From assembly GCA_032718475.1 (NCBI GenBank), contig JAUCBJ010002694.1, positions 1-42,101 of the forward strand: DNA of 42,101 nucleotides, given 5' to 3'. The translations under genes and the position numbers were made by a program. This stretch comes from Nemertoderma westbladi (taxonomy: Eukaryota; Animalia; Xenacoelomorpha). Positions 119 to 41,058 of this stretch are shown in pieces (positions within the stretch are counted from its first letter, which is position 1; each line of letters opens with the position of its first letter). The notes beneath the pieces were generated by a model. The model was not told the DNA's origin. It saw only the letters and a program-made list of their open reading frames with translations, and did no database searches.

Positions 119-770
119 CCACAGCCACAGCCACAGCCACAGCCACAGCCACAGCCACAGCCATAGCCACAGCCACAGCCACAGCCACAGCCACAGCCAC
201 AGCCACAACCACAGCCACAGCCACAACCACAGCCACAGCCACAACCACAGCCACAGCCACAGCCACAGCCACAGCCACAGCCACAGCCACAACCACAGCC
301 ACAGCCACAACCACAGCCACAACCACAACCACAGCCACAGCCACAGCCACAACCACAGCCCACAGCCACAGCCACAACCACAGCCACAGCCACAACCACA
401 GCCACAGCCACAGCCACAACCACAGCCACAGCCACAACCACAACCCACAGCCACAGCCACAACCACAGCCACAGCCACAGCCACAACCACAGCCACAGCC
501 ACAGCCACAGCCACAGCCACAGCCACAGCCACAGCCACAGCCACAGCCACAACCACAACCACAGCCACAACCACAGCCACAGCCACAACCACAGCCACAA
601 CCACAGCCACAGCCACAGCCACAGCCACAACCACAGCCACAACCACAGCCACAGCCACAACCACAGCCACAACCACAGCCACAGCCACAACCACAGCCAC
701 AGCCACAGCCACAACCACAGCCACAGCCACAGCCACAACCACAGCCACAACCACAGCCACAGCCACAGCC
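119..770. repeat. Hexamer microsatellite (ACAGCC/ACAACC)n, ~108 units
   Basis: Directly visible tandem repeat with two single-base C insertions near 361 and 445. Confidence 0.98.
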
Positions 771-773
771 ATT

Positions 774-847
774 GTTCCACCTTGGTGTAGTGGTTGCTTT
801 GAATTCACATCTCCAATAGGTCGTGGGTTCAATCCTCACATGGACCA
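774..847 (+). ncRNA. tRNA-like (Val-CAC-derived) Pol III unit in element arm
   Basis: 74 nt: A box TGGTGTAGTGG, TTCACA at the anticodon position, B box GGTTCAATCC, ends in CCA, TTTT shortly after. Anticodon stem pairs poorly, so not a functional tRNA. Confidence 0.6.
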
Positions 848-2594: not shown

Positions 2595-2833
2595 CAAGCA
2601 AGCAAACAGTCGGCCGAAGCCGGAGGCGACCCGAAAGCTCCTCTTTCGATAGCTGCTACCCGAGGGTAGGGGTGGGCGCTACTCCTATCCCAAGATTTGC
2701 TCCCAGTTATTTAACTGGTACTCATTTCATCGACCCCAGTGGATGAAAGGCTGAGTGGACCCTGGCGGGGCTGAACCTACAACCAATAGATTGCAGGCCC
2801 GGCGCTCAACCAACTGAGCTACCCCGTCTTTTA
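2595..2833 (-). mobile_element. tRNA-derived SINE, full length, with 12-bp TSD
   Basis: Minus strand: A box TAGCTCAGTTGG, degenerate B box GGTTCAGCCCC, central CTCAGCCTTTCATCC...GGTCGATGAAATGAGTACCAG motif typical of conserved metazoan SINE cores, (TTGC)n tail. ACTCATGTAAAG is duplicated at 2583-2594 and 2834-2845. Confidence 0.9.
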
Positions 2834-3000
2834 ACTCATGTAAAGAACTTTAAAAATCATTCAAATAAACTGAAAATTTATCTTCATCAAAAGTTATGTA
2901 ATATATTTTGTTGAATTATCTCAATCATTACAGCTATACAGGTATTCTACAATATTATTCCATTTACGATTCAGTTATTATTTTATTATTATCGAGAATT

Positions 3001-4092
3001 ATGTATACCTTTACGATTATGGGTTTACTTACAAATATATATTTTTGCATTGGAAGACAACAGGCAATCTATGATGTTGCAGATGCTGTTGGCAACTTAG
3101 AATCAAAAATACACATGCAGATTATGACGCGCTATCAGGAAGTTATAGGAGGGCTAGATAAATCATTTGTGTACGAAATCCTTCATCCTTGTGATAAATT
3201 ACAAAATCTTACTCGGCAACGAGAACCGCTAAGTGTAGATGAGTATAACTTACGTTACGAAATCGTTGACAATAGGTTTTATGGCCTAAACGGTAAAATC
3301 CGTTGCAATATAGACAGGTTTAGAGTGAATAGCGAACATTATTCATACATGAATATAAAACCAACATCAAAAAACAGAAAGGAAAGACAACAAGAGTATT
3401 ACAAACTGCAAAAAGTCAGTGGGGAATTACATGACTATGGTCCATGGTTGGTGATCATGCGTTCACATACAGTCGGTAATGGTCATACGGAATTTGGACA
3501 TAATGTGTTTAATTCCAATTGGGAAGATTATGTTTATGGGTTTGGTGGAACATCAGGTAACTTCTGGCTAGGCCTTGAAAAAATTTGGCAGCTCAGTAGA
3601 GGCGGAGTTCAACTAAAGATTGACATGTGGTATAATGGGTCAGGGAGTGAGGCGCCTTATCTCAACCAACATATAGATAGGAATCGTAAAGGGATTTACC
3701 ATAACCAGTCAACCAATGCATTCGCTATATATGATGAATTCAGTGTGGGATCAGCTGCAACTAACTACACTCTTCATATACGAGGTTTTCACGGTACCGC
3801 AGGAGATGATCTTGTAGGATATGATTTAATGCAAGGGATGGATTATGCTGGGAACCAATTTTCTACAAAAGATAGACACAATTCTGGTGGGGTTCTAGAC
3901 TGTGCAAAACTTCTAAATGGTGCGGGGTGGTGGTACCCAACCTTCTCTAAGAAAGTATCGACTTGGTTTGGTTGCAGGCACCTCACCGGTCCGATTTCGA
4001 GTTTGCATGATTTCAGAAATGGTGCTCCATATTGGCTCCCCTACTCGTATGGCCAGAGTTTGTACGGAGTAGAGATGAAAATCAGAGTATAG
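3001..4092 (+). CDS. Secreted fibrinogen C-terminal domain protein (FReD; ficolin/tachylectin-5/angiopoietin-like), 363 aa, intronless
   Basis: FReD motifs GPWLVIMR, FNSNWEDYVYGFG, GNFWLGLEKI, YTLHIRGFHGTAGD, FSTKDRHN, GAGWWY, EMKIR. First ATG at 3001 gives a signal-peptide-like N-terminus (the track start at 2908 is TTG). AATAAA at 4206-4211. Confidence 0.92.
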   Translation: MYTFTIMGLLTNIYFCIGRQQAIYDVADAVGNLESKIHMQIMTRYQEVIGGLDKSFVYEILHPCDKLQNLTRQREPLSVDEYNLRYEIVDNRFYGLNGKIRCNIDRFRVNSEHYSYMNIKPTSKNRKERQQEYYKLQKVSGELHDYGPWLVIMRSHTVGNGHTEFGHNVFNSNWEDYVYGFGGTSGNFWLGLEKIWQLSRGGVQLKIDMWYNGSGSEAPYLNQHIDRNRKGIYHNQSTNAFAIYDEFSVGSAATNYTLHIRGFHGTAGDDLVGYDLMQGMDYAGNQFSTKDRHNSGGVLDCAKLLNGAGWWYPTFSKKVSTWFGCRHLTGPISSLHDFRNGAPYWLPYSYGQSLYGVEMKIRV

Positions 4093-5584
4093 TAATGAAT
4101 AACTGTAAGTAATATGATTTACACACATTTATATTATTAATATATTAGATACTACAGGTGATAAAATATTATATAATATCATAATATATTACTTTATTTT
4201 TTTGCAATAAAATTAATAACATGTATTACAAAATGTCGGTTAGCCATTAAACTATAATTTGCGAACAACATCCTTCCTTCAAGTCACAGAGTCACTATTT
4301 GTCAGTATTACTTACTGTACAATGCAAGTACAGTAGAAAAACAAATATACAGTACAAGTAGGCCACTATAATACTGGACTGGTTGAGGAAAGGGAATTGG
4401 TGTATAAGATTTCTTACGCAGATCCGGCAGTTAGTTCTGCAGTCCGTAGCTAAATTTGGTTGAAAAATTGAGTTGGAGATTTTAGGATTTTTGTATAGAA
4501 AAGACGTCTTTCTGCTGGAGTAGTTTAGACTAGAGAGATGTTAGATGGAATGAGTGAGAGAATGAGTAGCTAGAGTTTAAGATAAAGAGTATTCTCGGAG
4601 TACTAGAGGGCCCCTTTCTATTTGCGGCAGGCTGCTTCTAATGTTGGTTTTTGAGTTAACTACAAGAAGAAAGACATTTCTTAAAACAGTCCTCATGTCT
4701 GATATCCGATCGTATGAGCGTAAGCTCCAGGTATTTTTAGATAGATAATGGGTGGCTCCGAAAGTCTTGCATAAGGCGACGGCATGAGGCAGCATTGAAT
4801 AGTCTGCCCATGATTTGGAAGTCACATAGAATAATAAATCAGAATCTTAAGGGTGATCTAGTGCTCGATGATCCAAAAAATAGAAATTGTTTTTTATTGT
4901 CGTTTCTAGATCGCATTTTCATGCAGTTTTTTAAAAACTTTTCAGATTTTTCATATCTTTTTTGGTTCTCGAGATATTCGCAAATGTATGAGGTGTGGTT
5001 TGGTGCCAATTTCCCATTTTTAGCCAAAAGTTTGGGTTTGTTTCTTTTGTACCACTACAATATGTCTACTCACCCCCACACAATCAAAAACTATCTTCTT
5101 ATGTTATTACAGTATTAGCAGTAGTTGGTGGGAAATTTGAACTGCTATTTGGTAGATAGTCCATTTCTGTGTACTTGTCTGTGCATTTACTTGCCTACAG
5201 GCAGCCAGCAGCGGTAGGCTGTTGAACACAGTCTGACAACAGTAATAGGCAGATAGGAATAGTAGGCCTAATAGTTTTTAATGTTAGTAATAGTAACCAG
5301 CCAGCAGGTTTGGTCAGTCGGCGTTTATGTCCAGGGCAGCAGGGGGTGTCCGGCTGTGCAGGACTTAGCTTCAGATTGCCTATCTACAGTAGAAGTAACT
5401 ACAGTCAGTACCGGTACCAAGGCTACTATACTGTAGGCTAGGTCTAAATTTACTAAAAAATAATAATGCTTACAGTTGTAATAGTTGTAGTAATATAATA
5501 ATAATGTAATGTAAATATAATATAGTGGTTTCTTATAATATAATATACAATTTTTTTAAATTTTCCAATAAATGCATAAATGGG

Positions 5585-6927
5585 AAACACATTGCCACCA
5601 TCGCAAAGAAAGCCAATGGAATAACTGGCCTTATTGCTCGAACCTTTAAACATCTGGACAGTGTCACGCTAGTCAACTTATTCAAAGCCCTCGTGAGACC
5701 AATTCTAGAATATGCATCCCCAGTATGGTCGCCACACCGTGTAAATGAAATACGACTTTTGGAATCTGTCCAACGTCGGGTGACCAGACTATTTCCTAAT
5801 CTCCGTAACTTAGCCTATCCGGAAAGATTAAAGCGACTAGGTCTCCCGACCCTTGAGTATCGCCGTTATCGCGCCGACCTGATCCAGGTGTACCGTTACC
5901 TTGCGGGTATCGACAACGCTGACTGCAGCATGTTCGAACTTTCCACGACTGGTCTACGCGGCCACTCATTCAAGCTCCAGAAACCCCGTGCTCGGCTGAT
6001 GCAGAGAAACACGACATTCCACTTCCGAGTCATCGATCCCTGGAACTCGCTATGCAATGCCGTTGTAACCGCCCCCAACCTTAACTCTTTTAAAACCCGT
6101 TTGAACTCCCACTTTAAAGATTTCCCGCTTAAATTTACCCCATCATGGTGGTCCATGTAAAAGTAAAATATCTTCCATAGTAACTCTTAACTTTTTACTC
6201 TTTTTGCTTACTAACTTTTAATATATTTCTCACCTTAATTAAAACTTTTATCACCACTTTTTGACTTTTAAACTTTTTCTAACCTTAATTAAAACTTTAG
6301 ATTACCACTTTTTAACTTTTTAACTAACTTTTTCTTACCTCTATTAAAACTTTTTTATCACCATTTAATTATACACACACATTAGACCCCGTTAATATTT
6401 AATATCTCAATAACTAATTGACAAACTGCATTTATCTACTTTGATCCTATATAATCGACGTTTTTAACTATGTACATTTAATAGTTTTTACTCGCGGCTT
6501 TACTGTTCTTACTTAATTTAATTTTTAACTTTCTTTTAATTTTAACCAAATAATTAAATATAAGTTTTAAAAATGCAACATATAACTAAATCAAGTTTTT
6601 AAATATATAAATTTGTTCGTCCTTTTTGTGTAAACCATAATTTTATTTCACGTTCGACTTTGTGTAATTTAAGATATTTTTAAGCCCTACGCTCCACAGC
6701 CATAATTTACATTACTTTTCACATATTTTTTTTTAAGTATGATTTTATGCTACATACTTTCGTTTACATACCCTCTTATCAACATTAATTAGTGCTAGGT
6801 AGTAGTAGGTAAGGTACTTAATTTGTTTCAGTTTAAATATTTTGACAGTAGTTTTATATTATGTCTGCACAGGTGCAATAAGCTTCTGCTTCCTCCGCCT
6901 CATTATTAAACATTAAACATTAAACAT
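5585..6927 (+). mobile_element. 5'-truncated CR1-clade LINE: ORF2 C-terminus (stop at 6160) plus 3' UTR
   Basis: LVRPILEYASPVWSPH, LESVQRRVTR, ERLKRLGLPTLEYRR, LRGHSFKL, RVIDPWNSL are typical CR1 post-RT motifs. T-rich UTR ends in (ATTAAAC)x3 at ~6905-6927. Confidence 0.9.
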
Positions 6928-7696: not shown

Positions 7697-9267
7697 ACTT
7701 TCTTGAGATGTCTCCTAAAGGACACTGGCCTTGAAGATGCGGATAATCTCGCAAAATTTAAAATGGTCATAGGGAAGTTGTGGGTAGTGCAGTTTTGTAG
7801 ATAGGCCGGCACAACATTCATAATTCATCATTGCATTCTCATTGCATTTCGATTGGATTTTAAGGGTATTTTAAGTACCCCCCCCCCCCCCCCCCCCTCC
7901 CCTTAAGTGTATAGTAACAAATATCATTATCCTAAAGTAAAATATCATCCTAAATTCCAATGGAATAGTGCCATTTAATATTTGTTGTTTTTTTTGCAGG
8001 GTGTATTTTACCCATGCTCTGTCGGGGTCGACAAACACAATATAAAGAGTAACTGGATATAATCTCTAAGAAATTCTACATTGATCATTTTTATTGATTG
8101 TTGAATGGATGGTGAATTAATTGTTAAATTTTCGTGGTGAATTATTATTATACATGATGTTATTTATATACATGTTGTTGTTGTATGTTATAATATTTAC
8201 AGTATTTTCGTCTCTCCATGCCCAGTCACATCTCACATCACAACTTCCGACACCGCATGGGGTTTTGAAGTGATGTATTTGTATTCCCAAACTCATAGTA
8301 TCTGAGTTCTCAACCAACGCTCTAACATTTCCTTTAACACTCACTTTATATCTCTCTCTATATATACTGTATATACTGTATATCTATCTCTCATTATCAA
8401 GTACTGTAAGTGGCCCCAGGTTAAAGCGCGCTGCCACATGTTCATTCATATAACCACCCCCCTCTCGATATATTATACTGACATTATATTACATAATTAT
8501 TAATAATAATAACCCTTCACAACGCCATCAACCTCAAACAGAATTATTGAATCTCCCAATTAATTTGTTAGCCGTAGTATGCCCGTCGTGTGTTACATCA
8601 AGAATGCAAACCTCATTTTTATCGGCCTGACCCCCTCCATTCAGCATCTTGACCTCCTGTTATCACCTCGTGATGTAATAATTTATCATTATATACTTCA
8701 TTCGGAGCAATTTCGTCAGTCTTCCAATTTTTTCCACCGGTTGTCACAAATTGTTTTTACCGCTCGCTCGCTCTGCTCGCTCGCTCCCCCGTCCACTCGC
8801 TCAGTCGCTTGTTCGCCTTTTCATTCGTCCCCAATCGGTTTACTTTGCTAACACTTTATTTCTGCTGATATTTGTAACCACATATACTCGAAGTAAATGT
8901 TTCATTCATTTCCCCTCCCCTTATTTTATGATTATTTTTACTACGTTATCGAAATATATTATGTTATTTATTAGTGCTTTTATTGTCCACATTTCATTAT
9001 CATAACATTATCATAACTGCCCGTGATTTGTAAATACAAAAAGATAGAATGCGAGCTCGTTATTAAAGAAACTCAATTTTGCAACCGAAACCTCCCTTGA
9101 GTGTCCCAATGATAGACATGCGTATCGCAGTAGGCCTACCTGCAGTAGGAAGGAATATCGTATCGGCACATAGGTCTACTTATACTAGTTATAGAGTTAC
9201 AGTTACCTTCAGATGGTAGTCAGATGTGAAATAGCTGGTGTTTCAGGTTCTACATCTGCATGCAGTC

Positions 9268-9757
9268 ATGGAATGTGAGTTTTGCGCGAATTCTTCGTTT
9301 GATAATATCGCCGGGCTGTACTATTGTACGGAATGTAACTCACAGAGTCAGCATGTCAGAGAGGAGGCTGTAGAAGATACATTCAACCAGACGAGAGGCC
9401 ACCACATCGCAGAGGCCGGGGCCGGCCGTGCAAAGACAGCCCAGAAAGCCCGGACAAAGGAAGAAAGACTTAAAGTGAGGATGGGAGAACCTTGGTTAAC
9501 GATGGATGGCTTCCAGGCGATTCTTAAGTATACAACCGAGTTACTTATAAATACATTCGACTTCGATGCGAATGTTAAGGATCACGTTGGGTTTATGTGG
9601 TTTCGGTATTTGAAGGCGTGCAATTACGCCTTTACTAAGAATCCCGTTAAACCTCCGACATTACGGGATGAACTGAACGGAGTCAGCTCAGAGATGGAGC
9701 TGTACGATAAACTATGCAACCATAGCAAAGAAGGAACCGCTGTTAAACGGAAAGCAG
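9268..9757 (+). CDS. TAF1B: TAF1B/Rrn7 (RNA Pol I SL1 subunit B), exon 1
   Basis: N-terminal TFIIB-type zinc ribbon CEFC...GLYYCTEC, then the WLTMDGFQAILK...MWFRYLK block characteristic of TAF1B. Donor GCAG|GTATTT, phase 1. Confidence 0.85.
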
Positions 9758-10157
9758 GTATTTAGTAGTAGTAGTAGTAGTAGTAAGCCTAACAAACTCG
9801 GGCAGTCGGGCGTAGGCATATTTGTTATAAGTGAATTCACGTCAATATAGCTAGCAAAGATCATGTCACCCTTTTTTATGTTAGGCCTATAGGAATTGGT
9901 TTGGAGTACGAAACCACTAATAATTGTCATTTGCCATTATTTGTCTGGCCATAAGTGCATTTCTGCCCTACGATAAAAACTTTGCTAAAAACATTTTGTT
10001 AAGGACAATAGGGGTGATATGATTTATTATTAGTTTATTAAATTTTTGTCAATATTACCACAAGCATAGCGAACTTAAAGTACCTGAAATACAGTCCGTG
10101 TTGTTAAGGTAGCCTTTAGTATTGCATTTAATATACCCTGTACTACTTATGTTGTAG

Positions 10158-11782
10158 AGGATGATGTTCATGATGAAATGGTCACGGAAAACATCGACAA
10201 TCTTGACGACCTCAACATCGACGATTATAGCGATGGTGACAACGATGATACTTCGAGTTCGAGTGGCATGGAATTATCTCCTAGAATTCACGGACGAGTC
10301 GGTTGCGGCTACCGTTCCTATCGACGCAACGTTAGTGTAATCAGCCTCGACGTTATCCTAGTCATTCTCTACCTCGCTCTCAGAAACACCAGCAGCAACA
10401 TCGAGCTAGGGGACCTCGCGAGGTGGGCCTGTCTGGGACACCTCCCTTACTGGGACGCGGGAAGCCGTCTTCCACCCCAGATGAAACTCTCAATAAAGGG
10501 TGACACTTGGACCTTCTTCCCTAGGAAGCCGCCTAGTCTGATCTTGCTCTATTGGTTATCGGCGCGTCTCCAGATCCTAATGTCGCGATCCAAGAAGCTC
10601 ACCCTCCCGGACCCCCCGCTGCTCGCGCTTGTCGGTCGGTATTTGTCCGACTCGAATCTCCCCCGCGAGATTGCGACTGTCGTCGCTTCGATCCTGGACG
10701 GGTTGATGCGATGGCCGTGTAAGCGAACCGCGTGGAGGTTGATAGCTCCGCGGAAGTTCCAAGGGAAACCCGTGTTTATTGTGATCCGGGAAGCGTACGC
10801 GGCTGCGTTGATCGTGGTCGCTTGCAAACTCCTCTTTGTCGAGGCGAATGGAGATAGTGAGGAAGATGTTGTTGATAATGAGGGTGATATAGTGGGTGAT
10901 AGCGATCCTGCAGTGCCTGTTTCAAGCGGCACTGTGAATTATTGTGGCGAATTTGGCGACGGTAGTAGCGAAATGTCCGACAGTCCATCAACAGAGTGCT
11001 GCCCACCTAGTGATTCCCCCGACGAGACTACATTCCGGCTCTCCGATTGGTTCTCCTACATGCGTTTGTGGGTTGAGCGAACGCCTCGCGTCGCCGCGGA
11101 CTTTACGCTGCGCGGGAACCACGCGGACAACCCCAGCGAACTGTGCGCGGAATACAGACGGGCGTTGCTACCTCGCTACACATCGGAGCGACTAATCTCC
11201 GGACCCAGACAGGTTCTGCGCTACAATAAACCAGACCGAGTAGCCGCCAGACAGCACATAGCCGCAATGTTTAGTGATAAGACAAGTGATAAATATGTTA
11301 ACAGAACCTCCGAAGAACCAAGTTTATACTGCCTGTGGATGAAATATAACCCAACTCCTATATCTAACGAACCGGGGTCAACCAATAAATGTTTTATTTT
11401 CTCCAGCGTTTCCCCGTATATCGAGTCCCGAGTGAAGTCTCTCGGTCGATCAGAAAGCTCCACCACATCGTTGTATTCGGTAATGTCGTTCGTTAACCTT
11501 CCCGCAGGTAACAAGGTACCGATGCTGTCCATTGCTGAACCCAGTCGTATCCCGGGATATTTACAAATTCCGGAATCGGTTCGGTTACTCCTGGACTTAC
11601 TAAGCGAGATTAGCGGTCTCTCTGTTACAACTATTCTCTATTACGTACAGGACATCGAAGGGCAGATGTTCCGGAAGGAAGGAAAGGCTATTAGTGATGA
11701 TAGTGACAGTTCCGTTGATTACGACTCCACCGGAAGCCCTGAACCGGAATCCCTTACCTTGAACCGGAATCCCATACCTTGA
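10158..11782 (+). CDS. TAF1B: TAF1B/Rrn7, exon 2 (joined protein ~704 aa)
   Basis: Acceptor TTATGTTGTAG|AG joins in frame (G|AG GAT GAT) across a 400-bp GT-AG intron. LVILYLAL...LGDLARWACLGHLPY and EAYAAALIVVACKLLF match TAF1B cyclin-fold motifs. Confidence 0.85.
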
Positions 11783-12692: not shown

Positions 12693-13747
12693 ACACTATC
12701 TGATGTTCGACAAATCATTTGACGTTGAAGCAACCTTAACCTGCTTGGGGTTAAATAGGGAATTATTTAATATCAATACTATTTGACTGAGGCCGGTTTG
12801 TGTAATTATCCTTTACATGTTGTACAATGTTGTGCTAAATTGTTTATTATCATACACGGTAATACTGTACACGTGCAATATATAATTATTGAATATTTTC
12901 ATGTAATGTTATATGTATATTATGAAGTTTGTTGGTTTTATGTGTGTTACTGCGCTAATTTCTATCACAAGCTGAGTTTTTTTTGCCAATTTTGACCCGT
13001 GAAAATAAGTTTAAAACTTTTCTATTTCACTGTGACTTGTCTATTTTTTTAATTGTACGTTTAAATGAATGTAACACGCAATGATTCCGAAACCCCAGAC
13101 TTAATGATTGGCTCAATGATCATTGATAATTGAGTTTCTGTTCATTGTAACGTGGTTCATATTTTGTTTTGAAATTAGAAAATAACCATGACCTATATTA
13201 TAGTGTTATTCTCCGCCTCTGATGATACGGACAACGCAAATAGTTCTACTCACCGTCGATTACCAGACGGAGACGAATTTTTAGCCTTTCAATTTTTAAA
13301 AGCAATTTAAAATTTTGTCTTTCGTGAAATCTCACAATTCGTATCGAAAGTATCCATTCTCCATCACATTAGCATCAACATAGTATCTTATATCATTAGA
13401 AAGTTTACTTTACCAGGATTCTAAATTTAACAATGTCTGAATTCCATTGAGAAACATGTGATTTAATTACTTTCAAAGATTACAAGAATAATCGTTGTCT
13501 CCATTTATACCAAGGACTTCTAGAAGATAATATTTATTCAGGACGCGAAGCTCGCATACAATACAGTGTTAATTTTTTTTAGAGACCGTATATTTTCTAC
13601 AACCGAGCCATACCGAAGACTACTAAATACGCCACAGAGAGCCATATTTACGTATATTTACGTTAAGACCCCTAGATCCCTTCCTATAATAAATATTTAC
13701 GTAGGGACAGATTGAGATAGCAGAAAGATTATATGAGATATGAGTTA

Positions 13748-16700
13748 CAAACAGATCGGATAAAAAGATCGGACAGACAAACAGATCGGACAAAGAGATC
13801 AGACAGACAAACACATCGGACAAAGAGATCAGACAGACAAACAGATCGGACAAAGAGATCACACAGATCGGACAAAGAGATCAGACAGACAAACAGATCG
13901 GACAGAGTGATCAGACAGACAAACAGATCGGACAAAGAGATCAGACAGACAAACAGATCAGACTAAGGGATCAGACAGACAAACAAATCGGGCAAAGGGA
14001 TCAGACAGACAAACAGATCGGACAAAGAGATCAGACATACAAACAGATCGGACAATGAGATCAGACAGACAAACAGATCGGACAAAGAGGTCAGACTGAC
14101 ATACAGATCGGACAAAGAGATCAGACAGACAAACAGATCGGACAAAGGGATCAGACAGGCAAACAGATCCTATAAAGGGGTCAGACAGACAAACAGAGCG
14201 GACAAAGGGATCAGACAAACAAACATATCGGACAAATGGATCAGACTGACATACAGATCGGACAAAGAGATCAGACAGACAAACAGATCGGACAAAGGGA
14301 TCATACAGACAAATAGATCGGACAAAGGGATCAGACCGACAAACAGATCGGACAAAGGATCAGACAGACAAACAGATCGGACAGACAAACAGATCAGACA
14401 AAGGGATCAGACAGGCAACCAATTCCTACAAAGGGATCAGACAGACAAACAGATCGGACAAAGAGATCAGACATACAAACAGATCGGACAAAGAGATCAA
14501 ACAGACAAACAGATCGGATAAAGAGATCAGACAGACAATCAGATCGGACAAAGAGATCAGACAGACAAACAGATCGGACAAAGAGATCAGACAGACAAAC
14601 AGATCGGACAAAGAGATCATACAGACAAACAGATCAGACAAAGGGATCAGACAGGCAAACAAATCGGACAAAGGGATCAGACTGACAAACAGATCGGACA
14701 AAGAGATCAGACATACAAACAGATCGGACAAAGAGATCAAACAGACAAACAGATCGGACAAAGAGATCAGACAGACAAACAGATCGGACAAAGAGATCAG
14801 ACAGGCAAACAGATCGGGCAAAGAGATCAGACAGACAAACAGATCGGACAAATGGATCAGACAGACAAACAGATCGGATAAAGGGATCAGAGAGACAAAC
14901 AGAGCGGACAAAGAGATCAGACAGATAAACAGATCGGACAAAGGGATCAGACAGACAAACAAATCGGACAAAGAGATCAGACATACAAACAGATCGGACA
15001 AAGGGATCAGACAGACAAACAGATCCTATAAAGGGATCAGACAGACAAACAGATCGGACAAAGGGATCAGACAGACAAACATATCGGACAAATGGATCAG
15101 ACAGACAAACAGATCGGACAAAGGGATCAGATAGACAAACAGCGGACAAAGGGATCAGACAGACAAACAGATCGGACAAAGGGATCAGACAGAAAAACAT
15201 ATCGGACAAAGAGATCAGACATACAAACAGAGCGGACAAAGGGATCAGACAGACAAACAAATCGGACAAAGGGATCAGACAGACAAACATATCGGACAAA
15301 GGGATCAGACAGACAAACATATCGGACAAAGGGGTCAGACAGACAAACAGAGCGGACAAAGGGATCAGACAGACAAACAGATCGGACAAAGGGATCAGAC
15401 AGACAAACAGATCTGACAAAGGGATCAGACAGACAAACAGCTCGGACAAAGGGATCAGACAGAAAAACAGATCGGACAAAGAGATCAGACAGATAAAGAG
15501 ATCGGACAAAGGGATCAGACAGACAAACAAATCGGACAAAGGGATCAGACAGACAAACAGAGCGGACAAAGGGGTCAGACAGACAAACAGAGCGGACAAA
15601 GGGATCAGACAGACAAACAGAGCGGACAAAGGGGTCAGACAGACAAACAGAGCGGACAAAGGGATCAGACAGACAAACAGAGCGGACAAAGGGGTCAGAC
15701 AGACAAACAGAGCGGACAAAGGGGTCAGACAGACAAACAGAGCGGACAAAGGGATCAGACAGACAAACAGAGCGGACAAAGGGGTCAGACAGACAAACAG
15801 ATCGGACAAAGGGATCAGACAGACAAACAGATCGGACAAAGGGATCAGACAGACAAACAGATCGGACAAAGGGATCAGACAGACAAACAGATCGGACAAA
15901 GGGATCAGACAGACAAACAGATCGGACAAAGAGATCAGACAGACAAACAGCTCGGGCAAAGGGATCAGACAGAAAAACAGATCGGACAAAGAGATCAGAC
16001 AGATAAACAGATCGGACAAAGGGATCAGACAGACAAACAAATCGGACAAAGGGGTCAGACAGACAAACATAGCGGACAAAGGGATCAGACAGACAAACAG
16101 AGCGGACAAAGGGGTCAGACAGACAAACAGATCGGACAATGAGATCAGACAGACAAACAGATCGGACAAAGAGATCAGACTGACATACAGATCGGACAAA
16201 GGGATCAGACAGACAAACAAATCGGACAAAGAGATCAGACATACAAACAGAGCGGACAAAGGGATCAGGCAGACAAACAAATCGGACAAAGGGATCAGAC
16301 AGACAAACATATCGGACAAAGGGATCAGACAGACAAACAAATCGGACAAAGAGATCAGACATACAAACAGAGCGGACAAAGGGATCAGACAGACAAACAG
16401 AGCGGACAAAGGGGTCAGACAGACAAACAGAGCGGACAAATGGATCAGACAGACAAACAGATCGGACAAAGGGGTCAGACAGACAAACAGAGCGGACAAA
16501 GGGGTCAGACAGACAAACAGATCGGACAAAGGGATCAGACAGACAAACAAATCGGACAAAGGGATCAGACAGACAAACATATCGGACAAAGAGATCAGAC
16601 AGACAAACAGATCGGACAAAGGGATCAGATAGACAAACAGAGCGGACAAAGGGGTCAGACAGACAAACAGAGCGGACAAAGGGATCAGACAGACAAACAG

Positions 16701-17870
16701 AACGGACAAAGGGGTCAGACAGACAAACAGAGCGGACAAAGGGATCAGACAGACAAACAGATCGGACAAAGGGGTCAGACAGACAAACAGAGCGGACAAA
16801 GGGATCAGACAGACAAACAAATCGGACAAAGGGATCAGACAGACAAACATATCGGACAAAGGGATCAGACAGACAAACAAATCGGACAAAGAGATCAGAC
16901 ATACAAACAGAGCGGACAAAGGGATCAGACAGACAAACAGAGCGGACAAAGGGGTCAGACAGACAAACAGAGCGGACAAAGGGATCAGACAGACAAACAG
17001 ATCGGACAAAGGGGTCAGACAGACAAACAGAGCGGACAAAGGGGTCAGACAGACAAACAGAGCGGACAAAGGGATCAGACAGACAAACAAATCGGACAAA
17101 GGGATCAGACAGACAAACATATCGGACAAAGAGATCAGACAGACAAACAGATCGGACAAAGGGATCAGATAGACAAACAGAGCGGACAAAGGGGTCAGAC
17201 AGACAAACAGATCGGATAAAGAGATCAGACAGACAAACAGATCGGACAAAGAGATCAGACAGATAAACAGATCGGACAAAGGGATCAGACAGACAAACGA
17301 ATCGGACAAAGGGATCAGACAGACAAACATATCGGACAAAGAGATCAGACAGACAAACAGATCGGACAAAGGGATCAGATAGACAAACAGAGCGGACTAA
17401 GGGGTCAGACAGACAAACAGATCGGACAAAGGGATCAGACAGACAAACAGATCGGACAAAGAGATCAGACAGATAGACAGATCGGACAAAGGGATCAGAC
17501 AGACAAACAAATCGGACAAAGAGATCAGACATACAAACAGAGCGGACAAAGGGATCAGACAGACAAACAGAGCGGACAAAGGGGTCAGACAGACAAACAG
17601 ATCGGACAAATGGATCAGACAGACAAACATATCGGACAAATGGATCAGACAGACAAACAGATCGGACAGAGTGATCAGACAGACAAACAGATCGGACAAA
17701 GAGATCAGACAGACAAACAGATCGGACAAATGGATCAGACAGACAAACAGATCGGGCAAAGGGATCAGACAGACAAACAGATCGGACAAAGGGATCAGAC
17801 AGACAAACAGATCGGACAAAGGGATCAGACAGACAAACAGATCGGACAAAGAGATCAGACAGACAAACAC
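13748..17870. repeat. 30-bp satellite AAACAGATCGGACAAAG(G/A)GATCAGACAGAC, ~137 copies
   Basis: Directly visible. The unit contains two related halves (AAACAGATCGGAC and AAAGGGATCAGAC) plus AGAC. Confidence 0.98.
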
Positions 17871-17977
17871 AAATAATCACAACGCAGACAGTCAAATAAC
17901 AAATATATAATGTAGATAGGACAATTTGATAATGCTCACCATAGCGAAAAATATCAACCGGCCCTATTGGGGCTCGA

Positions 17978-18021
17978 ACCCGGTACCTAGGTTTCAAACT
18001 TCTGGTTATCATCAGCCGGGT
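17978..18021 (-). ncRNA. Minimal type I hammerhead ribozyme (left-arm copy), within tRNA-like unit 17958-18043
   Basis: Exact reverse complement of 18334-18377. Confidence 0.75.
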
Positions 18022-18309
18022 GACTACTGAGCTACCAGACCGGATGAATATTTCGCTGTGGAGTGGAGTGGGAGATCATATTTAGGCCAACTAATCACTC
18101 AAAGGAAAGTACAAGTTCGTTATTCCCGTGCTCTGCCAGCCTGGGCTAGGCATTACGGGGTTACAGTGGTTTCTACAACACTGTATAATAGTTATTCTTT
18201 GAGGCATGGTTGCCATTTCTGGCAGAGCACGGGAATAACGAACTTGTACTTTCCTTTGAGTGATTAGTTGGCCTAAATATGATCTCCCACTCCACAGCGA
18301 AATATTCAT

Positions 18310-18408
18310 CCGGTCTGGTAGCTCAGTACACTCACCCGGCTGATGATAACCAGAAGTTTGAAACCTAGGTACCGGGTTCGAGCCCCAATAGGGCCGGTTG
18401 ATATTTTT
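18310..18408 (+). ncRNA. tRNA-like Pol III transcription unit containing the hammerhead
   Basis: CCGGTCT/GGGCCGG acceptor-like stem, A box TAGCTCAGT (18319), B box GGTTCGAGCCC (18375-18385), TTTTT terminator at 18404-18408. Confidence 0.7.
18334..18377 (+). ncRNA. Minimal type I hammerhead ribozyme (right-arm copy)
   Basis: ACCCGG (stem I) - CTGATGA - T AAC cagaa GTT T (stem II) - GAAA - palindromic ACCTAGGT helix III - GTA cleavage triplet (after 18371) - CCGGGT (stem I'). Confidence 0.78.
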
Positions 18409-19247
18409 CGCTATGGAGAGCATTATCATATTGTCCTATCTACATTATATATTTAATTCACCGTCACTCACCCCACAACAATTCATTTATTATTATTAAA
18501 TAACAAATATGAGACTAATGAAATTAATTTCCAACTAATGAAATTAATTTACCGTTGCCATATCAACAGTTAATTAATGGAGCCGTGAAACAAAATAATC
18601 GCCTCATGGATGGCCGTATTTTGAACCGATTATGTTCGAATGTGCCAGTAATTTACAATTTTTAAAAAACATACCTTTTTTTCTTGAATTTAAATGATAA
18701 ATTATTTTCCATAGCATTTTAAATATAAATATTTATCCAGAAAAGTGTTCTGTTCAGAATGCATTTTTAGCTAGAGCCTGGGAATAGTACCTGGAATACT
18801 GATTTCGAGAATAAATTTTAAAGTAAAACTACAACGGTCAATATTCCTCTAAATACGAATCGCTTTGTATTAAGCGTTGATGGGTGAGTACAAAACAAAG
18901 ACTCAAGACCTGTACAAAACACATGTGTAAACTTTCGTTTGGTTCCCCCAACACGCCTCTGTAACCTGCTCCTTTAAATGGCAATGGGACCTAACGCGAC
19001 TTTACCTCTTTGTTTTGTACAGATGGTATTGTGTCTTTGCATTGTACCCACACCCCCCCCCCCCCCCCCCCAAATTTAGCGTTTCGAACATGACCATTAG
19101 TCCGTGGTGCTATTATACTACAGTGAGTTGTTCTAACACGGAGCAATACCGCCTTGCTTCAAGTATCTCAGTAAAATATTAATACTAGGCCTTACCGGTA
19201 GCTGATGTGATCGTGATCTCCAGATGTAGCATATTAAAATATAGGCC

Positions 19248-21352: not shown

Positions 21353-23319
21353 ATAAGTCATGACCAGACCAGACCAAACCAACCCTGTATAGACGATAGA
21401 GCCTGAAAAGTGTCAGGCGTATAATATCAAATATATAGTCAAAAGAGGTTGATATTAGATATCAGAAAATAGCCTTCAGATTTGGAATCTCCATTAAATT
21501 CGCCACACCACCACAGGTGGAGATCATAAAAAAATATGGATCCAAAATATATAGCGCTAACACCCCATCCTCCCTTACCAGTAGTAGGGTCTTGGCCGGC
21601 TCTGCGACAGTTGGACCCCACTGACACCCATTGGGTGTCATATGACACCCAATTATCACCCTATGGGTGTCATTGGGTGTCATTGGCGCCAGACTGTCTG
21701 GGTGACACCTCCCAATTAGGCTAATTAGACCCTAATTGACAGGTGTCATCAATTAATTAGTACAATTAAACCCTAACAGGTGTCATATGACTCCTAATTA
21801 GGGTTTAATTGATTATCCTAATTAATCAGACTGATTAGCGCCCTGACACACAATGGGTCAATCAGTGTTGTCCAACTGTCGCAGAGCCGGCTCAAGAGGG
21901 TGTCATAAGTGACACCGCAGCTCTTTTATTCATTAATACTTATTTATTTATATTTAATTTTAATTAATTGTACTTTATTTTACTTTATTTATTCATTTGT
22001 ACTTTATTTTATATTAATTATTCATTTGTACTTTATGGGTATACAGCTCCCTTACTGGTAACTAATTACTCTTATCTATATCCAGACAGCTTTTTCGTTG
22101 ACCTTTGACCTTTGACCCCTCAATTAGCTTTAACCAAGCAACAGCATATTAATGATAGTTGTATCCAAGCGCCCCTGCCCCCACCCCGTGACAGCTCTGA
22201 TTACTAATTACTCGTACATATATCCAACCGCCTGCAGTTCCATAGTCTGCCGCTAGAGGGCGTATTATCTGAAAATTAACATCTTCTCTAACTTTGTTAT
22301 TTTCAATTTAACTATTTATTTCTACCTAATTTTAATTAATTATTTGTATTCTATTTTACTTTATTTATTCATTTGTACTTTATTTTAAATTAATTAATTG
22401 TATTACTTTTATTTTATATATTGATTTCTATTTTTAGATTAATTAGTTTTTATATTACTTACCGCTACTAAATGAGATCATTATTGGAAGCATCTAACCA
22501 TAGACTTGCAGCCTTATTTAGCCATAGGGTATACAGCTCCCCTACTGGTAACTATTTTGGAGTTAATGTTAGCAAAGGGCCTAAACTTAAGACAAGCTAT
22601 CGCCTAGGTTACCAGTTACGCATGAATGAGCAATTTATCGGGGCCCCTTTTAAAATTCTTTGTGCTGCGTCAGGATTGCCTCATTTAAGGAAGCCGCATC
22701 CCTATCGATAATCTAATTATGGTATCGCTAACCATTTTCAGTATACTGTATAATTAAATAGGGCCCTCTTTTAATACATAAGTTTATATATACAGTTTAT
22801 CTTCAATTTAATTTGTTTTTATTTACAACCCTAATTGTTCTACTGTAATTTATGTTTTATAATATCAAGCTATATCCGGTTAATCCATATTAATTTACTT
22901 TGTACTGAGGTTATCGAGGGCGCTCTTTCCAATGGTCCTATTCTCAAAACGATCTAACCCACTGTATAATTAATTACTTAAGACTGCGAGGTATGCGTAA
23001 TTAACACATCTCATTTACCAGTTTTCCTTAAAAACTATGAAGTTATATTGCTTAAGAGTTCTAAGGGGCGAGCCATGAGGCTAGATGTTTGAGGCTTATT
23101 TAGATATATTATTACTTAATTTGACCCCCCAATCGGCATCTACTATGGCATAGGCTATATCTTTTGCAGAGTCACAGAGTAGTATGAAGTTCCCCAGTCT
23201 GCCGCTAGAGGGCTTAATGTCTCAAAGTGAAAACCATACGGTAGCCATGAATTGGTTACTAGGCAATAATACTGCATTTTGCAACGTTAGACCTATTGCT
23301 GACCGAACGAAAACTGCCC

Positions 23320-23393
23320 TGGTTCATGCAGGGGTCGAACCCATGACATACGAGAGATGTGAATTCTACGCAACCACTACACCAAGGTGGAAC
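23320..23393 (-). ncRNA. tRNA-like unit in left arm, facing outward
   Basis: Inverted homolog of 26782-26855 with A box, B box GGTTCGACCCC and terminal CCA. Confidence 0.6.
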
Positions 23394-23456
23394 AGTAACC
23401 TTCGAATTTGTTCGTTGACGTTCGAATTTGTAAGACTCTCATTTAAGACTTGACAC

Positions 23457-25760: not shown

Positions 25761-26718
25761 AGTGAGGCATAGACTATGCCTCACTGAGGCATAGTCTATG
25801 CCTCAGTGCCTTAGTGAGGCATAGTCTATGCCTCAATGAGTCATAGTCTATGCCTCAGTGCCTCAGTGAGGCATAGTCTATGCCTCAGTGAGTCATAGTC
25901 TATGCCTCAGTGCCTCAGTGAGGCATAGTCTATGCCTCAGTGAGGTCTAGTCTATGCCTCAGTGAGGCAGAGTCTATCCCTCACTGCCTCAGTGAGGCAC
26001 TGAGTGAGGCATAGACTATGCCTCAGTGAGTCATAGTCTATGCCTCATGCCTCAGTGAGGCATAGTCTATGCCTCAGTGAGGCATAGTCTATGCCTCAGT
26101 GAGTCATAGTCTATGCCTCAGTGCCTCAGTGGGGCAGTGAGGCATAGTCTATGCCTCAGTGAGGCATAGTCTATGCCTCAGTGAGTCATAGTCTATGCCT
26201 CAGTGAGTCATAGTCTATGCCTCAGTGCCTCAGTGAGGCCTAGTCTATGCCTCAGTGAGGCCTAGTCTATGCCTCAGTGAGGCATAGTCTATGCCTCAGT
26301 GAGGCATAGTCTATACCTCAGTGAGTCAGTGAGGCATAGTCTATGCCTCAGTGAGGCCTAGTCTACGCCTCAGTGAGGCATAGTCTATGCCTCAGTGCCT
26401 CAGTGAGGCATAGTCTATGCCTCAGTGAGGCATAGTCTATGCCTCAGTGAGTCATAGTCTATGCCTCAGTGCCTCAGTGAGGCATAGTCTATGCCTCAGT
26501 GAGGCATAGTCTATGCCTCAGTGAGGCATAGTCTATGCCTCAGTGAGTCATAGTCTATGCCTCAGTGAGTCATAGTCTATGCCTCAGTGAGTCATAGTCT
26601 ATGCCTCAGTGCCTCATAGTCTATGCCTCAGTGAGGCATAGTCTATGCCTCAGTGCCTCAATGAGGCATAGTCTATGCCTCAGTGAGTCATAGTCTATGC
26701 CTCGGTGAGGCATAGTCT
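25761..26718. repeat. 22-bp quasi-palindromic satellite, inverted relative to 23457-23676, ~43 copies
   Basis: (AGTCTATGCCTCAGTGAGGCAT)n with TGAGTCA variants and short half-unit duplications. Confidence 0.97.
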
Positions 26719-26781
26719 GTGTCAAGTCTTAAATGAGAGTCTTACAAATTCGAACGTCAACGAGCAAATTCGAAGGTTACT

Positions 26782-26855
26782 GTTCCACCTTGGTGTAGTG
26801 GTTGCGTTGAATTCACATCTCCCGTATGTCATGGGTTCGATCCCCGCATGAACCA
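26782..26855 (+). ncRNA. tRNA-like (Val-CAC-derived) unit in right arm, facing outward
   Basis: GTTCCACCTTGGTGTAGTGGTT...TTCACA...GGGTTCGATCCCC...TGAACCA, then TTTT at 26862-26865. Confidence 0.62.
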
Positions 26856-27859
26856 GGGCAGTTTTCGTTCGGTCAGCAATAGGCCTAACGTTGCAAAATG
26901 CAGTATTATTGCCTAGTAACCAATTCATGGCTATCGTATGGTTTTCACTTTGAGATATTTCGCCCTCTAGCGGCAGACGGGGGAACTTCAGACTACTCTG
27001 TGACCCTGCAAAAGATATAGCCTATGCCGTAATAGATGCCGATTGGGGGGTCAAATTAAGTAATAATATATCTTAATAAGTCTCAAACATCTTGCCTCAT
27101 GGCTCGCCCCTTAGAACTCTTGAGCAATATAACTTCATGGTTTTGCGGATTGTAAATATCAAAGCTAGAGAAGATGTTAATTTTTAAACAATACGCCCTC
27201 TAGCGGCAGACTATGGAACTGCAGGCGGTTGGATATAGGTAACAGTAATTAGTAATCAGAGCTGTCACGGGGTGGGGGCGGGGGGCGCTTGGATACAACT
27301 ATCATTAATATGCTGTTGCTTGGTTAAAGCTAATTGGGGGGGTCAAAGGTCAAAGGTCAGCGATAAAGCTGTCTGGATATAGATAAGAGTAATTAGTTGC
27401 CAGTAAGGGAGCTGTATACCCATAAAGTACAAATGAATAATTAAAGTAAAATAAAGTACAAATAATTAATTAAAATTAAATATAAATAAATAGGTATTAA
27501 TGAATAAAAGAGTAATGATGGCAGAGGAGGGGTCCCCCGCCGATGAACGTAGTTGATAGTTGCTGGGAATGTGGTGAACGGGGGATGCAATAGGTAATTA
27601 TATAGCTAAATATAGACATGATGTCATAGTGATCTCATTGGTAATATAAAAACTACTTAATCTAAAAATAGAAATCAATGTATAAAGTAAAAGTAATATA
27701 TACAATTAATTAATTTAAAATAAAGTACAAATGAATAATTAATTTAGAATTAAATACAAATAAAATAAAATGCAAATAATTAATTAAAATTAAGTATAAA
27801 TAAATAAGTATTAATGAATAAAAGAGCCGCGGTGTCACTTATGACACCCTCTTGGGCCT

Positions 27860-30980: not shown

Positions 30981-31830
30981 CTATTCCAAAATTGTAACAT
31001 TACGAAATGATTTTACATATACATCATAACTTACAGTATAAGTGATAGAAACTGCACCAATTATATTAGTTGCTGTATAAATAAATGTAAAAGTGACATA
31101 AATTATGTTATAAATAAGTTAGCTTATATTTATGGTGGCGTTTGGAGCCATGTTATAATATAATAATATAGCTAGGCCCTACTGGTTATTAATAGCTACT
31201 GTATACCCCGCCCCGCCTCCTGCAGTATCTGGCTGTCAGGCAAATTTCCACCTATTGATTACTGTATGTACGTGGTAACCATTGACGCCGTAACATTACA
31301 GCTCGCCGTGATTGGTTACTACTGTAAATAAACATGGGACATTACAACACTGCAACACCCACTACAATACTAATTATACAGGCCAATACAATGCTGTAAT
31401 GTCCTCTAAGGTTGTAAAGTGCTGACTAACAACAACATGCTGTTAATACTAACGGCGTTGAGTAAAGTTACAATCTTGTAGGAAAGGAGCAGGTTACAGA
31501 GGCGGGTTTTCCTAACAAAAACAATAAACGGTCACTTTTTCTAAACAAAAAAATATTGGCAGTGTTGATCTTGATATGGTAGATTAGACATAGGCTGTAG
31601 GTATGGTATAACATATATCACAAAAGTCATGATCAATCATAATTACAACAGAAATCAAGACAGCTGGTTAATGCTGCACTGCACAGTACAGTACCGTAAA
31701 CTACTCTGCTTCCGCATCATTAACTATGACTCAGCATCAGCACCACACAACACCAACCAAATTCCGCACGCCTATAATGAGGCGTTACCTATCAGCCTAT
31801 AGGCCTACTATAATGTAATACCGGCGTATG

Positions 31831-34800
31831 AACTATACTACCGTTGTAGTAGCTGCACTACCGTAGAATCTACACTACCGTTGTAGTAGCTGCACTACCG
31901 TAGAAACTACACTACCGTTGTAGTAGCTGTACTACCGTATAAATTATACTACCGTTGTAGTAGCTGCACTACCGTAGAATCTATACTACCGTTGTAGTAA
32001 CTGCACTACCGTATAAACTATACTACCGTTGTAGTAGCTGCACTACTGTAGAAACTATACTACCGTTGTAGTAGCTGTACTACCGTATAAACTACACTAC
32101 CGTTGTAGTAGCTGCACTACCGTAGAATCTATACTACCGTTGTAGTAGCTGCACTACCGTAGAATCTATACTACCGTTGTAGTAGCTGCACTACCGTATA
32201 AACTATACTACCGTTGTAGTAGCTGTACTACCGTATAAACTATACTACCGTTGTAGTAGCTGCTCTACCATAGAAACTACACTACCGTTGTAGTAGCTGT
32301 ACTACCGTAGAATCTATACTACCGTTGTAGTAGCTGCACTACCGTAGAAACTATACTACCGTTGTAGTAGCTGCACTACCGTATAAACTATACTACCGTT
32401 GTAGTAGCTGCACTACCGTAGAATCTATACTACCGTTGTAGTAGCTGTACTACCGTATAAACTACACTACCGTTGTAGTAGCTGCACTACCGTAGAAACT
32501 ATACTGCCGTTGTAGTAGCTGCACCACCGTTGTAGTAGCTGCACTACCGTAGAAACTATACTAACGTTGTAGTAGCTGCACTACTGTAGAAACTATACTA
32601 CCGTTGTAGTAGCTGCACTACCGTACAAACTATACTACCGTTGTAGTAGCTGCACTACCGTAGAAACTACACTACCGTTGTAGTAGCTGCACTACCGTAT
32701 AAACTATACTACCGTTGTAGTAGCTGCACTACCGTAGAATCTATAATAACGTTGTAGTAGCTGCACTGCCGTTGTATTAGCTGCACTACCGTAGAAACTA
32801 CACTACCGTTGTAGTAGCTGCACTACCGTAGAAACTATACTACCGTTGTAGTAGCTGCACTACCGTAGAAACTACACTACCGTTGTCGTAACTGCACTAC
32901 CGTATAAACTATACTACCGTTGTAGTAGCTGCACTACAGTAGAAACTATACTACCGTTGTAGTAGCTGCACTACCGTAGAAACTATACTACCGTTGTATT
33001 AGCTGCACTACCGTAGAAACTACACTACCGCTGTAGTAGCTGCACTACCGTAGAAACTATACTACCGTTGTAGTAGCTGCACTACCGTAGAAACTATACT
33101 ACCGTTGTAGTAGCTGTACTACCGTATAAACTACACTACCGTTGTAGTAGCTGCACTACCGTAGAAACTATACTACCGTTGTAGTAGCTGCACTATCATA
33201 GAAACTACACTACCGTTGTAGTAGCTGCACTACCGTATAAACTACACTACCGTTGTAGTAGCTGCACTACCGTAGAAACTATACTACCGTTGTAGTAGCT
33301 GCACTACCGTATAAACTACACTACCGTTGTAGTAGCTGCACTACCATAGAAACTACACTACCGTTGTAGTAGCTGCACTACCGTAGAAACTACACTACCG
33401 TTGTAGTAGCTGCACTACTGTAGAAACTACACTACCGTTGTAGTAGCTGCACTACAGTAGAAACTATACTACCGTTGTAGTAGCTGCACTACCGTAGAAA
33501 CTACACTACCGTTGTAGTAGCTGCACTACCGTAGAAACTACACTACCGTTGTCGTAGCTGCACTACCGTAGAAACTACACTACCGTTGTAGTAGCTGCAC
33601 TACCGTAGAAACTATACTACCGTTGTAGTAGCTGCACTACAGTAGAAACTATACTACCGTTGTAGTAGCTGCACTACCGTAGAAACTATACTACCGTTGT
33701 ATTAGCTGCACTACCGTAGAAACTACACTACCGCTGTAGTAGCTGCACTACCGTAGAAACTATACTACCGTTGTAGTAGCTGCACTACCGTAGAAACTAT
33801 ACTACCGTTGTAGTAGCTGCACTACCGTTATATTAGCTGCACTACCGTAGAAACTATACTACCGTTGTAGTAGCTGCACTACCGTATAAACTATACTACC
33901 GTTGTAGTAGCTGCACTACCGTAGAAACTACATTACCGTTGTAGTAGCTGCACTACCGTATAAACTATACTACCGTTGTAGTAGCTGCACTACCGTAGAA
34001 TCTATAATACCGTTGTAGTAGCTGCACTGCCGTTGTATTAGCTGCACTAGCGTAGAAACTACACTACCGTTGTAGTAGCTGCACTACCGTAGAAACTATA
34101 CTACCGTTGTAGTAGCTGCACTGCCGTTGTATTAGCTGCACTACCGTAGAAACTACACTACCGTTGTAGTAGCTGCACTACCGTAGAAACTATACTACCG
34201 TTGTAGTAGCTGCACTACCGTAGAAACTACACTACCGTTGTAGTAACTGCACTACCGTAGAAACTATACTACCGTTGTAGTAGCTGCACTACAGTAGAAA
34301 CTATACTACCGTTGTAGTAGCTGCACTACCGTAGAAACTATACTACCGTTGTATTAGCTGCACTACCGTAGAAACTACACTACCGCTGTAGTAGCTGCAC
34401 TACCGTAGAAACTATACTACCGTTGTAGTAGCTGCACTACCGTAGAAACTATACTACCGTTGTAGTAGCTGCACTACCGTTGTATTAGCTGCACTACCGT
34501 AGAAACTATACTACCGTTGTAGTAGCTGCACTACCGTATAAACTATACTACCGTTGTAGTAGCTGCACTACCGTAGAAACTACACTACCGTTGTAGTAGC
34601 TGCACTACCGTATAAACTATACTACCGTTGTAGTAGCTGCACTACCGTAGAATCTATAATACCGTTGTAGTAGCTGCACTGCCGTTGTATTAGCTGCACT
34701 ACCGTAGAAACTACACTACCGTTGTAGTAGCTGCACTACCGTAGAAACTACACTACCGTTGTCGTAACTGCACTACCGTATAAACTATACTACCGTTGTA

Positions 34801-40800: not shown

Positions 40801-41058
40801 CCGTTGTCGTAGCTGCACTACCGTAGAAACTACACTACCGTTGTAGTAGCTGCACTACCGTAGAAACTATACTACCGTTGTAGTAGCTGCACTACAGTAG
40901 AAACTATACTACCGTTGTAGTAGCTGCACTACCGTAGAAACTATACTACCGTTGTATTAGCTGCACTACCGTAGAAACTACACTACCGCTGTAGTAGCTG
41001 CACTACCGTAGAAACTATACTACCGTTGTAGTAGCTGCACTACCGTTATATTAGCTGC
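31831..41058. repeat. 37-bp satellite CTA(T/C)ACTACCGTTGTAGTAGCTGCACTACCGTAGAAA, ~250 copies, with higher-order structure
   Basis: Directly visible 9.2-kb array. The unit is 20+17 bp with both subunits sharing ACTACCGT; occasional extra 20-bp monomers. Confidence 0.98.

Follow-up and report, generated by a model that had tools for sequence, protein, structure and literature searches.

A hammerhead ribozyme sequence inside the tRNA-like part of a high-copy repeat of ~360 nt, a likely non-LTR retrozyme, in Nemertoderma westbladi

Metazoan non-LTR retrozymes, as described by Cervera and de la Pena in 2020 (PMC7229834), are tandem units of 150-450 bp with a GC content below 50%, target-site duplications longer than 4 bp and no open reading frame, and RtcB circularised other retrozymes than ours in vitro (PMC7229834). 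In Schistosoma, the repeats called Sm-alpha, as well as Sj-alpha, are SINE-like hammerhead retroposons (PMC6765202, PMC2770079, PMC8490949), and the promoter of Sm-alpha is related to tRNA (PMC2770079). For Penelope-like elements (PLEs), Craig et al. described insertions in which one copy is inverted and truncated at its 5' end and one end bears a tail of 30-40 bp (PMC8557442), and Frangieh et al. explained this tail by reverse transcription that begins at two internal positions of an AC-rich stem-loop, and by nicking of AT-rich DNA (PMC11167929). Ortola and Daros (bioRxiv 10.1101/2022.01.19.477025) proposed that the CUGAYGA U-turn of viroid hammerheads resembles an anticodon loop and serves to attract tRNA ligase, and in the covered part of Kojima 2024 (Helenus/Ajax) hammerheads appear solely in a reference title.

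Here we describe a hammerhead nested in a tRNA-like unit within a window of 42,101 nt (the whole stretch of DNA that was analysed). Retrozymes and tRNA-linked hammerheads are already known; what is unusual here is the overlap of the ribozyme with a tRNA-like promoter, and in the literature, whose primary papers and supplements were covered in part, we found no description of a hammerhead nested between an A box and a B box. We consider it probable that the locus is an insertion of an abundant ~360-nt repeat, likely a non-LTR retrozyme for which a Penelope element supplies the reverse transcriptase (RT). The features on which this reading is built are listed in Table 1.

Table 1. Features of the repeat insertion and of the nested ribozyme (positions are those of the window).
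Feature	Position	Strand	Remarks
13-bp direct repeat, left	17894..17906	+	AT-rich; probable target-site duplication; last 6 bases also match the element end
Inverted, 5'-truncated copy without tail	17907..18139	-	matches 18219-18448/18454, 95.9% identical
Second hammerhead	17978..18021	-	sequence identical to the plus-strand one
Near-complete monomer	18140..18497	+	358 nt, 42.5% GC, longest stop-free frame 98 aa
Outer stem, 5' arm	18290..18311	+	prolongs the acceptor-like stem; pair probabilities mostly 0.8-1.0; fold z -3.5
Acceptor-like 5' strand (tRNA 1-7)	18312..18318	+	6/7 pairs with 18389-18395, exact register
Partial A box	18319..18329	+	tRNA 8-15 match, G18-G19 missing
Canonical type I hammerhead	18334..18377	+	core motifs and three helices
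Helix I	18334-18339/18372-18377	+	6 Watson-Crick pairs
CTGATGA core	18340-18346	+	at the anticodon-loop position of the tRNA-like unit
Helix II	18347-18359	+	U.U mismatch first, then 3 pairs
GAAA	18360-18363	+
Helix III	8-nt palindrome 18363-18370	+	2 pairs, palindromic loop CTAG
Expected cut	18371/18372	+	predicted, after the GUA triplet
Perfect B box / T-loop	18375..18385	+	chance 5e-6 per position; overlaps the 3' strand of helix I
Acceptor-like 3' strand (tRNA 66-72)	18389..18395	+
Outer stem, 3' arm	18396..18418	+	includes T5, 18404-18408
Tail	18449..18497	+	49 nt (43-49), AC-rich then AT-rich, at one end only
13-bp direct repeat, right	18498..18510	+

The initial annotation had placed a complete type I hammerhead between an A box and a B box, and our searches bear this out: all the parts that it named are found within 18310-18408, a type I hammerhead descriptor matched once per strand in the window and in none of 200 order-1 resamples, and a pattern for the fused hammerhead/tRNA-like architecture gave 2 matches in the window compared to 0 in 100 shuffles. 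For membership of type I, the core CUGANGA, the GAAA and the UH are all present and the ends open in helix I, whose 3' strand does overlap the B box as had been proposed. The helix positions follow the hammerhead numbering, and the cut expected at 18371/18372 follows the NUH rule. A distal extension of helix I (18321-18324 with 18380-18383), together with an internal loop, is possible in the modelled pairing. Stem II is present, but it opens with a U.U mismatch and has just three pairs. The label "minimal" given to the hammerhead was wrong, because its helix sizes match those of the canonical metazoan type I hammerheads described in PMC4209133. The Rfam search returned no gathering-level match; the best hammerhead model was Hammerhead_HH9, at 19.7 bits (cut-off 52, E 0.041), and Hammerhead_1, the model proposed at the outset for an Infernal check, is absent among the 9 Rfam matches at E<=10. 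A match to mir-4798 (41.8 bits, cut-off 75) was rejected as the hairpin formed by the two inverted copies.

The ribozyme sequence lies in a tRNA-like frame. An acceptor-like stem and a T5 terminator had been named as closing the unit, and both are present, T5 being the only run of four or more T in the 358-nt monomer. The register of positions 1-7 against 66-72 rests on T8 at 18319 and T54 at 18377 in tRNA numbering. An A-box start together with at least six of seven acceptor pairs in this register has a chance of 4e-4, in a test devised after the data were seen. The A-box letters weigh less, however, because pairing to the B box may fix 18321-18324, and the residual chance would then be 0.026. 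Two of the Pol III features claimed earlier stand in part: the A box matches tRNA positions 8-15 but lacks G18-G19 in both copies, and in the T-arm the B box is perfect whereas the T-stem has three of its five pairs. No cloverleaf forms, the D-arm and the anticodon stem are impossible, ARAGORN found no tRNA, and a covariance model built from 16 unselected tRNAs left the plus copy unlisted and gave the minus copy a non-significant 10 bits (E 0.81). A tRNA-Leu called by ARAGORN under relaxed settings is an artefact spanning the inverted repeat, and a sigma-70 promoter scan was set aside, the locus being animal. We are nevertheless fairly confident that the unit is descended from a tRNA. That the A and B boxes work as a Pol III promoter has, in our judgement, an even chance, and transcription of the unit by Pol III is a prediction from these motifs.

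Other tRNA-like sequences occur in the window. A second repeat family with a tRNA-like head has copies at 769-1424 (+), 22750-23394 (-) and 26477-27144, 87-93% identical, which lie next to either a microsatellite of hexamers or arrays built from a 22-bp palindrome. The top score of the tRNA model, 15.3 bits (E 0.02), falls on the tRNA-like head of another SINE-like sequence at 2763-2828 (-).

Whether the ribozyme would cut was approached through predicted folds and through variants. In the monomer contexts the predicted minimum is 5.8-6.8 kcal/mol lower than the hammerhead, whose helices have probabilities close to 0, and in the competing predicted fold the A-box region pairs with the hammerhead core. 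The earlier proposal that T-arm and ribozyme folds compete is doubtful, since the T-arm has three pairs with a pairing probability of about 0 and the competition is predicted to come from another fold; a switch between the two was rejected as the main competition. The expectation that the palindromic helix III favours a dimer fared better: a double hammerhead formed through the 8-nt palindrome lies 9.2 kcal/mol below two monomer minima. Owing to its weak helix II, it still exceeds the dimer minimum by 6.2 kcal/mol, and the unconstrained dimer minimum already contains helices I and III. The axolotl hammerhead HHR_Amex2 cleaves 22% as a monomer and far better as a dimer (PMC7229834), U10.1-U11.1 is tolerated in hammerheads (PMC3088659), and an unfavourable predicted fold does not exclude activity, because a PLE hammerhead aided by protein is known (PMC11167929). 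Self-cutting is predicted for the hammerhead, which would probably cleave best as a dimer.

None of the 38 variant rows listed within the unit falls at the 30 constrained ribozyme positions, where 3.3 would be expected (P 0.03), in a test that draws on one contig mapping, with 40 of 63 difference rows listed and the variants unlinked; for the deepest run alone the count is 0 of 21 listed rows (P 0.15). The three ribozyme variants among the listed rows lie at N7, in loop 2 and at 10.1, the last turning the U.U closing mismatch into an A-U pair, and the N7 variant, CUGAAGA, reaches 45% of depth in run X4. Two acceptor variants turn a G.U into a G-C pair. Variants at 18313 and 18394 have matching shares in X1 (14.6% and 14.7%), which would suit a compensatory change, and are unlinked. 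Of the 11 listed variant rows located at modelled pairs, five disrupt the pair by themselves, including a 26% variant at 18394 that disrupts the 18313/18394 pair.

The unit belongs to a larger element, and the initial annotation had included neither the second copy on the minus strand, nor the flanking 13-bp repeat, nor the larger unit. Its proposal of a ~100-nt stand-alone RNA is not supported, because the mobile unit is ~360 nt long and tandem. The two copies join head to head; the match of the inverted copy extends over 18139-17901 against 18219-18454, and the plus copy extends 49 nt beyond it. Tail ends recur among contig loose ends, clustered near 18450 and 18498. The ends of the insertion lie ~230 nt before and ~125 nt after the predicted cut, which indicates that the copied template spanned an intact ribozyme, either as a circle or as an uncut multimer. 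The monomer folds better than its shuffles, with z -2.3 as a linear molecule (0 of 60 shuffles) and -2.1 as a circle, values that are no more than compatible with a circular RNA. The unit holds no long reading frame, none exceeding 98 aa, and no Pfam match to a Penelope partner frame (RT, GIY-YIG) was obtained in the 6 of 47 window ORFs scanned.

The surroundings of the insertion include minisatellite arrays at 13747-17869 (30-bp units) and 31825-41046 (37-bp units), the insertion lying 25 bp from the end of the first array. Elsewhere in the window, an intronless-looking reading frame at 2902-4092 (+) encodes a fibrinogen C-terminal domain (Pfam E 5e-22), which points to an animal host, and an RRN7-type zinc ribbon at 9235-9765 (+) is followed at 10088-11782 (+) by a 564-aa frame that has neither a Pfam nor a homolog match; the gene is possibly TAF1B-like. 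The frame at 5510-6160 (+) has no Pfam match and resembles the C-terminal tail of a CR1/L2-type LINE protein.

Six of nine runs contain the stretch or part of it, and the figures for the family come from three DNA runs of one organism; run X5, which we guess to be RNA and which is from another organism, gave 2 partial contigs and was left out. In the three DNA runs 1955, 1117 and 136 contigs fit the unit, and the best-matching run may be the sample from which the window itself comes. The summed depth, which is not a copy number, rises to ~3e5 within 18154-18500 compared to 19 beyond 18520, and is highest in the 3' half of the unit. All three runs show joints from 18495-18497 to 18154 with 18-20 letters between; such joints step back 344, which with 18 letters between gives a head-to-tail period of ~362 nt, and loose ends before 18154 continue into the unit's own 3' end. 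The unit is a high-copy family with head-to-tail tandem copies. A 3.7% variant in X4 breaks T5.

How such an element might move can be outlined as follows. Tandem copies would give multimeric RNA, made either by Pol II or by transcription that starts from the internal A and B boxes and passes T5. As T5 would halt Pol III after ~97 nt, a length insufficient for the unit, mobilisation would need this read-through, Pol II, or source copies without T5. Two hammerheads would pair via the 8-nt palindrome and cut at 18371/18372, and since the cut lies between the A and B boxes, the freed monomer would begin with the B-box half and end with the A-box half. A host tRNA ligase of the RtcB type may then circularise the monomer and so restore the promoter as well as the ribozyme, a step in which the tRNA-like scaffold possibly assists. 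The RT/endonuclease of a Penelope element would nick AT-rich DNA and begin copying from two internal positions of the RNA separated by ~49 nt, and this use of two starts could yield copies in tandem or inverted order that bear a tail and are flanked by a duplicated target. The unit itself would most likely have arisen from a tRNA gene whose anticodon loop turned into the ribozyme core.

Searches elsewhere showed how near a tRNA gene can come to a hammerhead. With the pattern for the fused architecture, no relative was found in viral sequences (9 matches) or in prokaryote genomes (5 matches), where the matches have at most four of six helix I pairs, nor in metagenomes among at least 120 matches dominated by intron-containing tRNAs; blastn of the monomer against the 134 loci gave 0 matches. 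This absence is no evidence of uniqueness, because the collections hardly cover animals. The core-plus-T-loop pattern occurs in at least 120 metagenome stretches, and among the matches listed ARAGORN called at least 82 tRNAs, of which at least 50 are intron-containing tRNA-Phe; we infer that these tRNA matches are archaeal. In the tRNA-Phe matches (within L010-L129; L023, L040, L054, L086 and L089 are examples) the anticodon loop CUGAAGA equals a hammerhead core, the intron ends in GAAA and the variable loop supplies GUC, so that tRNAs can mimic hammerheads, and five tRNA-like matches have all six helix I pairs. Intron-containing tRNA-Phe genes are thus a source of false positives in hammerhead searches. 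Two other matches, L051:4001-4046 (-) and L125, contain a well-formed type I hammerhead with a palindromic loop 3 and a T-loop-like 3' strand and no upstream A box, and this hammerhead is apparently that of an unrelated eukaryotic repeat.

The step from a tRNA-Phe gene to a hammerhead takes few changes, which hints at a route from one to the other. A bolder version, possible although on balance doubtful, is that a tRNA gene, probably tRNA-Phe, was remodelled in place so as to work as a hammerhead: its anticodon loop would have become the core, an insert at the intron position helix II and the GAAA, and a strand of the T-stem helix I. The tRNA-Phe loop CUGAAGA is the same as the N7 variant described above. 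If this in-place reading is true, the locus is a still extant stage in the making of a ribozyme out of a tRNA, and, because the cut splits the Pol III promoter, only ligated circles would regenerate a promoter-bearing copy, while short T5-ended RNAs could serve in trans as dimer partners.

The same mimicry raises the question of whether the locus is a tRNA-derived repeat with a mere hammerhead look-alike, CUGANGA being common to anticodon loops and hammerhead cores and the GAAA coming from an intron-like insert. The metagenome tRNAs, above all the five with full helix I pairing, and a predicted minimum fold other than the hammerhead speak for this. Those tRNAs, however, retain the 3' anticodon strand and have no palindromic helix III, whereas here the 8-nt palindrome replaces that strand and helices I-III all form, and in size and in pattern of insertion the locus agrees with hammerhead retrozymes; we therefore hold a look-alike to be very unlikely. 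We attach as little credence to a stand-alone ~100-nt self-cleaving Pol III RNA for which the surrounding repeat is merely a carrier: the A and B boxes and T5 do bound ~97 nt, and an RNA of that length could act in trans as a dimer partner, yet the copied RNA spans an intact ribozyme and extends past T5, and T-arm pairing is negligible.

Two further explanations are unlikely, each to the same degree, and less remote than the former two. The locus could be a heavily 5'-truncated insertion of an autonomous PLE, the repeat being its pseudo-LTR, as an inverted copy with a tail is the PLE pattern (PMC8557442), pseudo-LTRs contain hammerheads (PMC4209133, PMC6765202) and contig depth peaks in the 3' half. 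Against this, loose ends before 18154 enter the unit's own 3' end, joints give the ~362-nt period, the helices have canonical sizes whereas metazoan PLE hammerheads are mostly minimal (PMC4209133, PMC7229834), and no RT frame was found at the locus in the Pfam scan of 6 of 47 window ORFs. The element could also be a true retrozyme whose likeness to a tRNA is coincidental or a dead relic, transcribed by Pol II read-through with its boxes idle. The non-significant covariance score, the incomplete A box, the arms that cannot form, T5 within the unit and contigs that skip the A-box region (joints 18265->18328 and 18238->18334) are in keeping with idle boxes; a perfect B box and an acceptor stem in exact register from T8 and T54 are not, and neither is a fuller A box in other copies, seen at loose ends before 18328 with low agreement (0.46), nor, weakly, a monomer without another T4 run. 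We favour the insertion of a likely retrozyme that carries its hammerhead inside a tRNA-like unit.

The transcription of metazoan retrozymes becomes testable, as the family has candidate Pol III boxes inside the ribozyme. The origin of genomic hammerheads likewise becomes testable, a core in full tRNA register offering a definite path by which a tRNA could turn into a ribozyme. The locus also joins a canonical-hammerhead retrozyme to a Penelope insertion signature, which supports a mobiliser that has been proposed and is unproven.

The ties to Penelope elements, retrozymes and Sm-alpha that the initial annotation had drawn are supported by comparison with the published descriptions. With the metazoan non-LTR retrozymes the element shares a tandem unit of 358 nt, a GC content of 42.5%, a canonical type I hammerhead, a 13-bp repeat like a target-site duplication and the lack of an ORF, and by description it resembles Rtz_353/HHR_Amex2 of the axolotl in a two-pair helix III with a tetraloop and a U.U at helix II (PMC7229834). 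It differs in its tRNA-like unit and Pol III boxes, which the covered part of that account does not describe, and in that accumulation as circular RNA, a trait of theirs, is a prediction for ours. Compared to PLEs, the inverted 5'-truncated copy, one-sided tail, AT-rich target, AC-rich tail, tandem copies and hammerhead are alike (PMC8557442, PMC11167929, PMC4209133), whereas here no RT/GIY-YIG frame is found in the unit or among the 6 of 47 window ORFs scanned, the tail measures 49 nt instead of 30-40, and the hammerhead is canonical and not minimal. Sm-alpha, a tandem repeat of many copies and comparable length (335 bp), likewise combines a tRNA-related Pol III promoter with a type I hammerhead, but its hammerhead comes after the promoter (PMC6765202), whereas here the ribozyme lies between the boxes and overlaps them, so that the predicted cut splits the promoter. 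Viroid hammerheads, as far as the cited account goes, offer mimicry of the loop only; at this locus the loop stands in tRNA register with an acceptor stem, an A box and a T-loop, which suggests descent from a tRNA gene.
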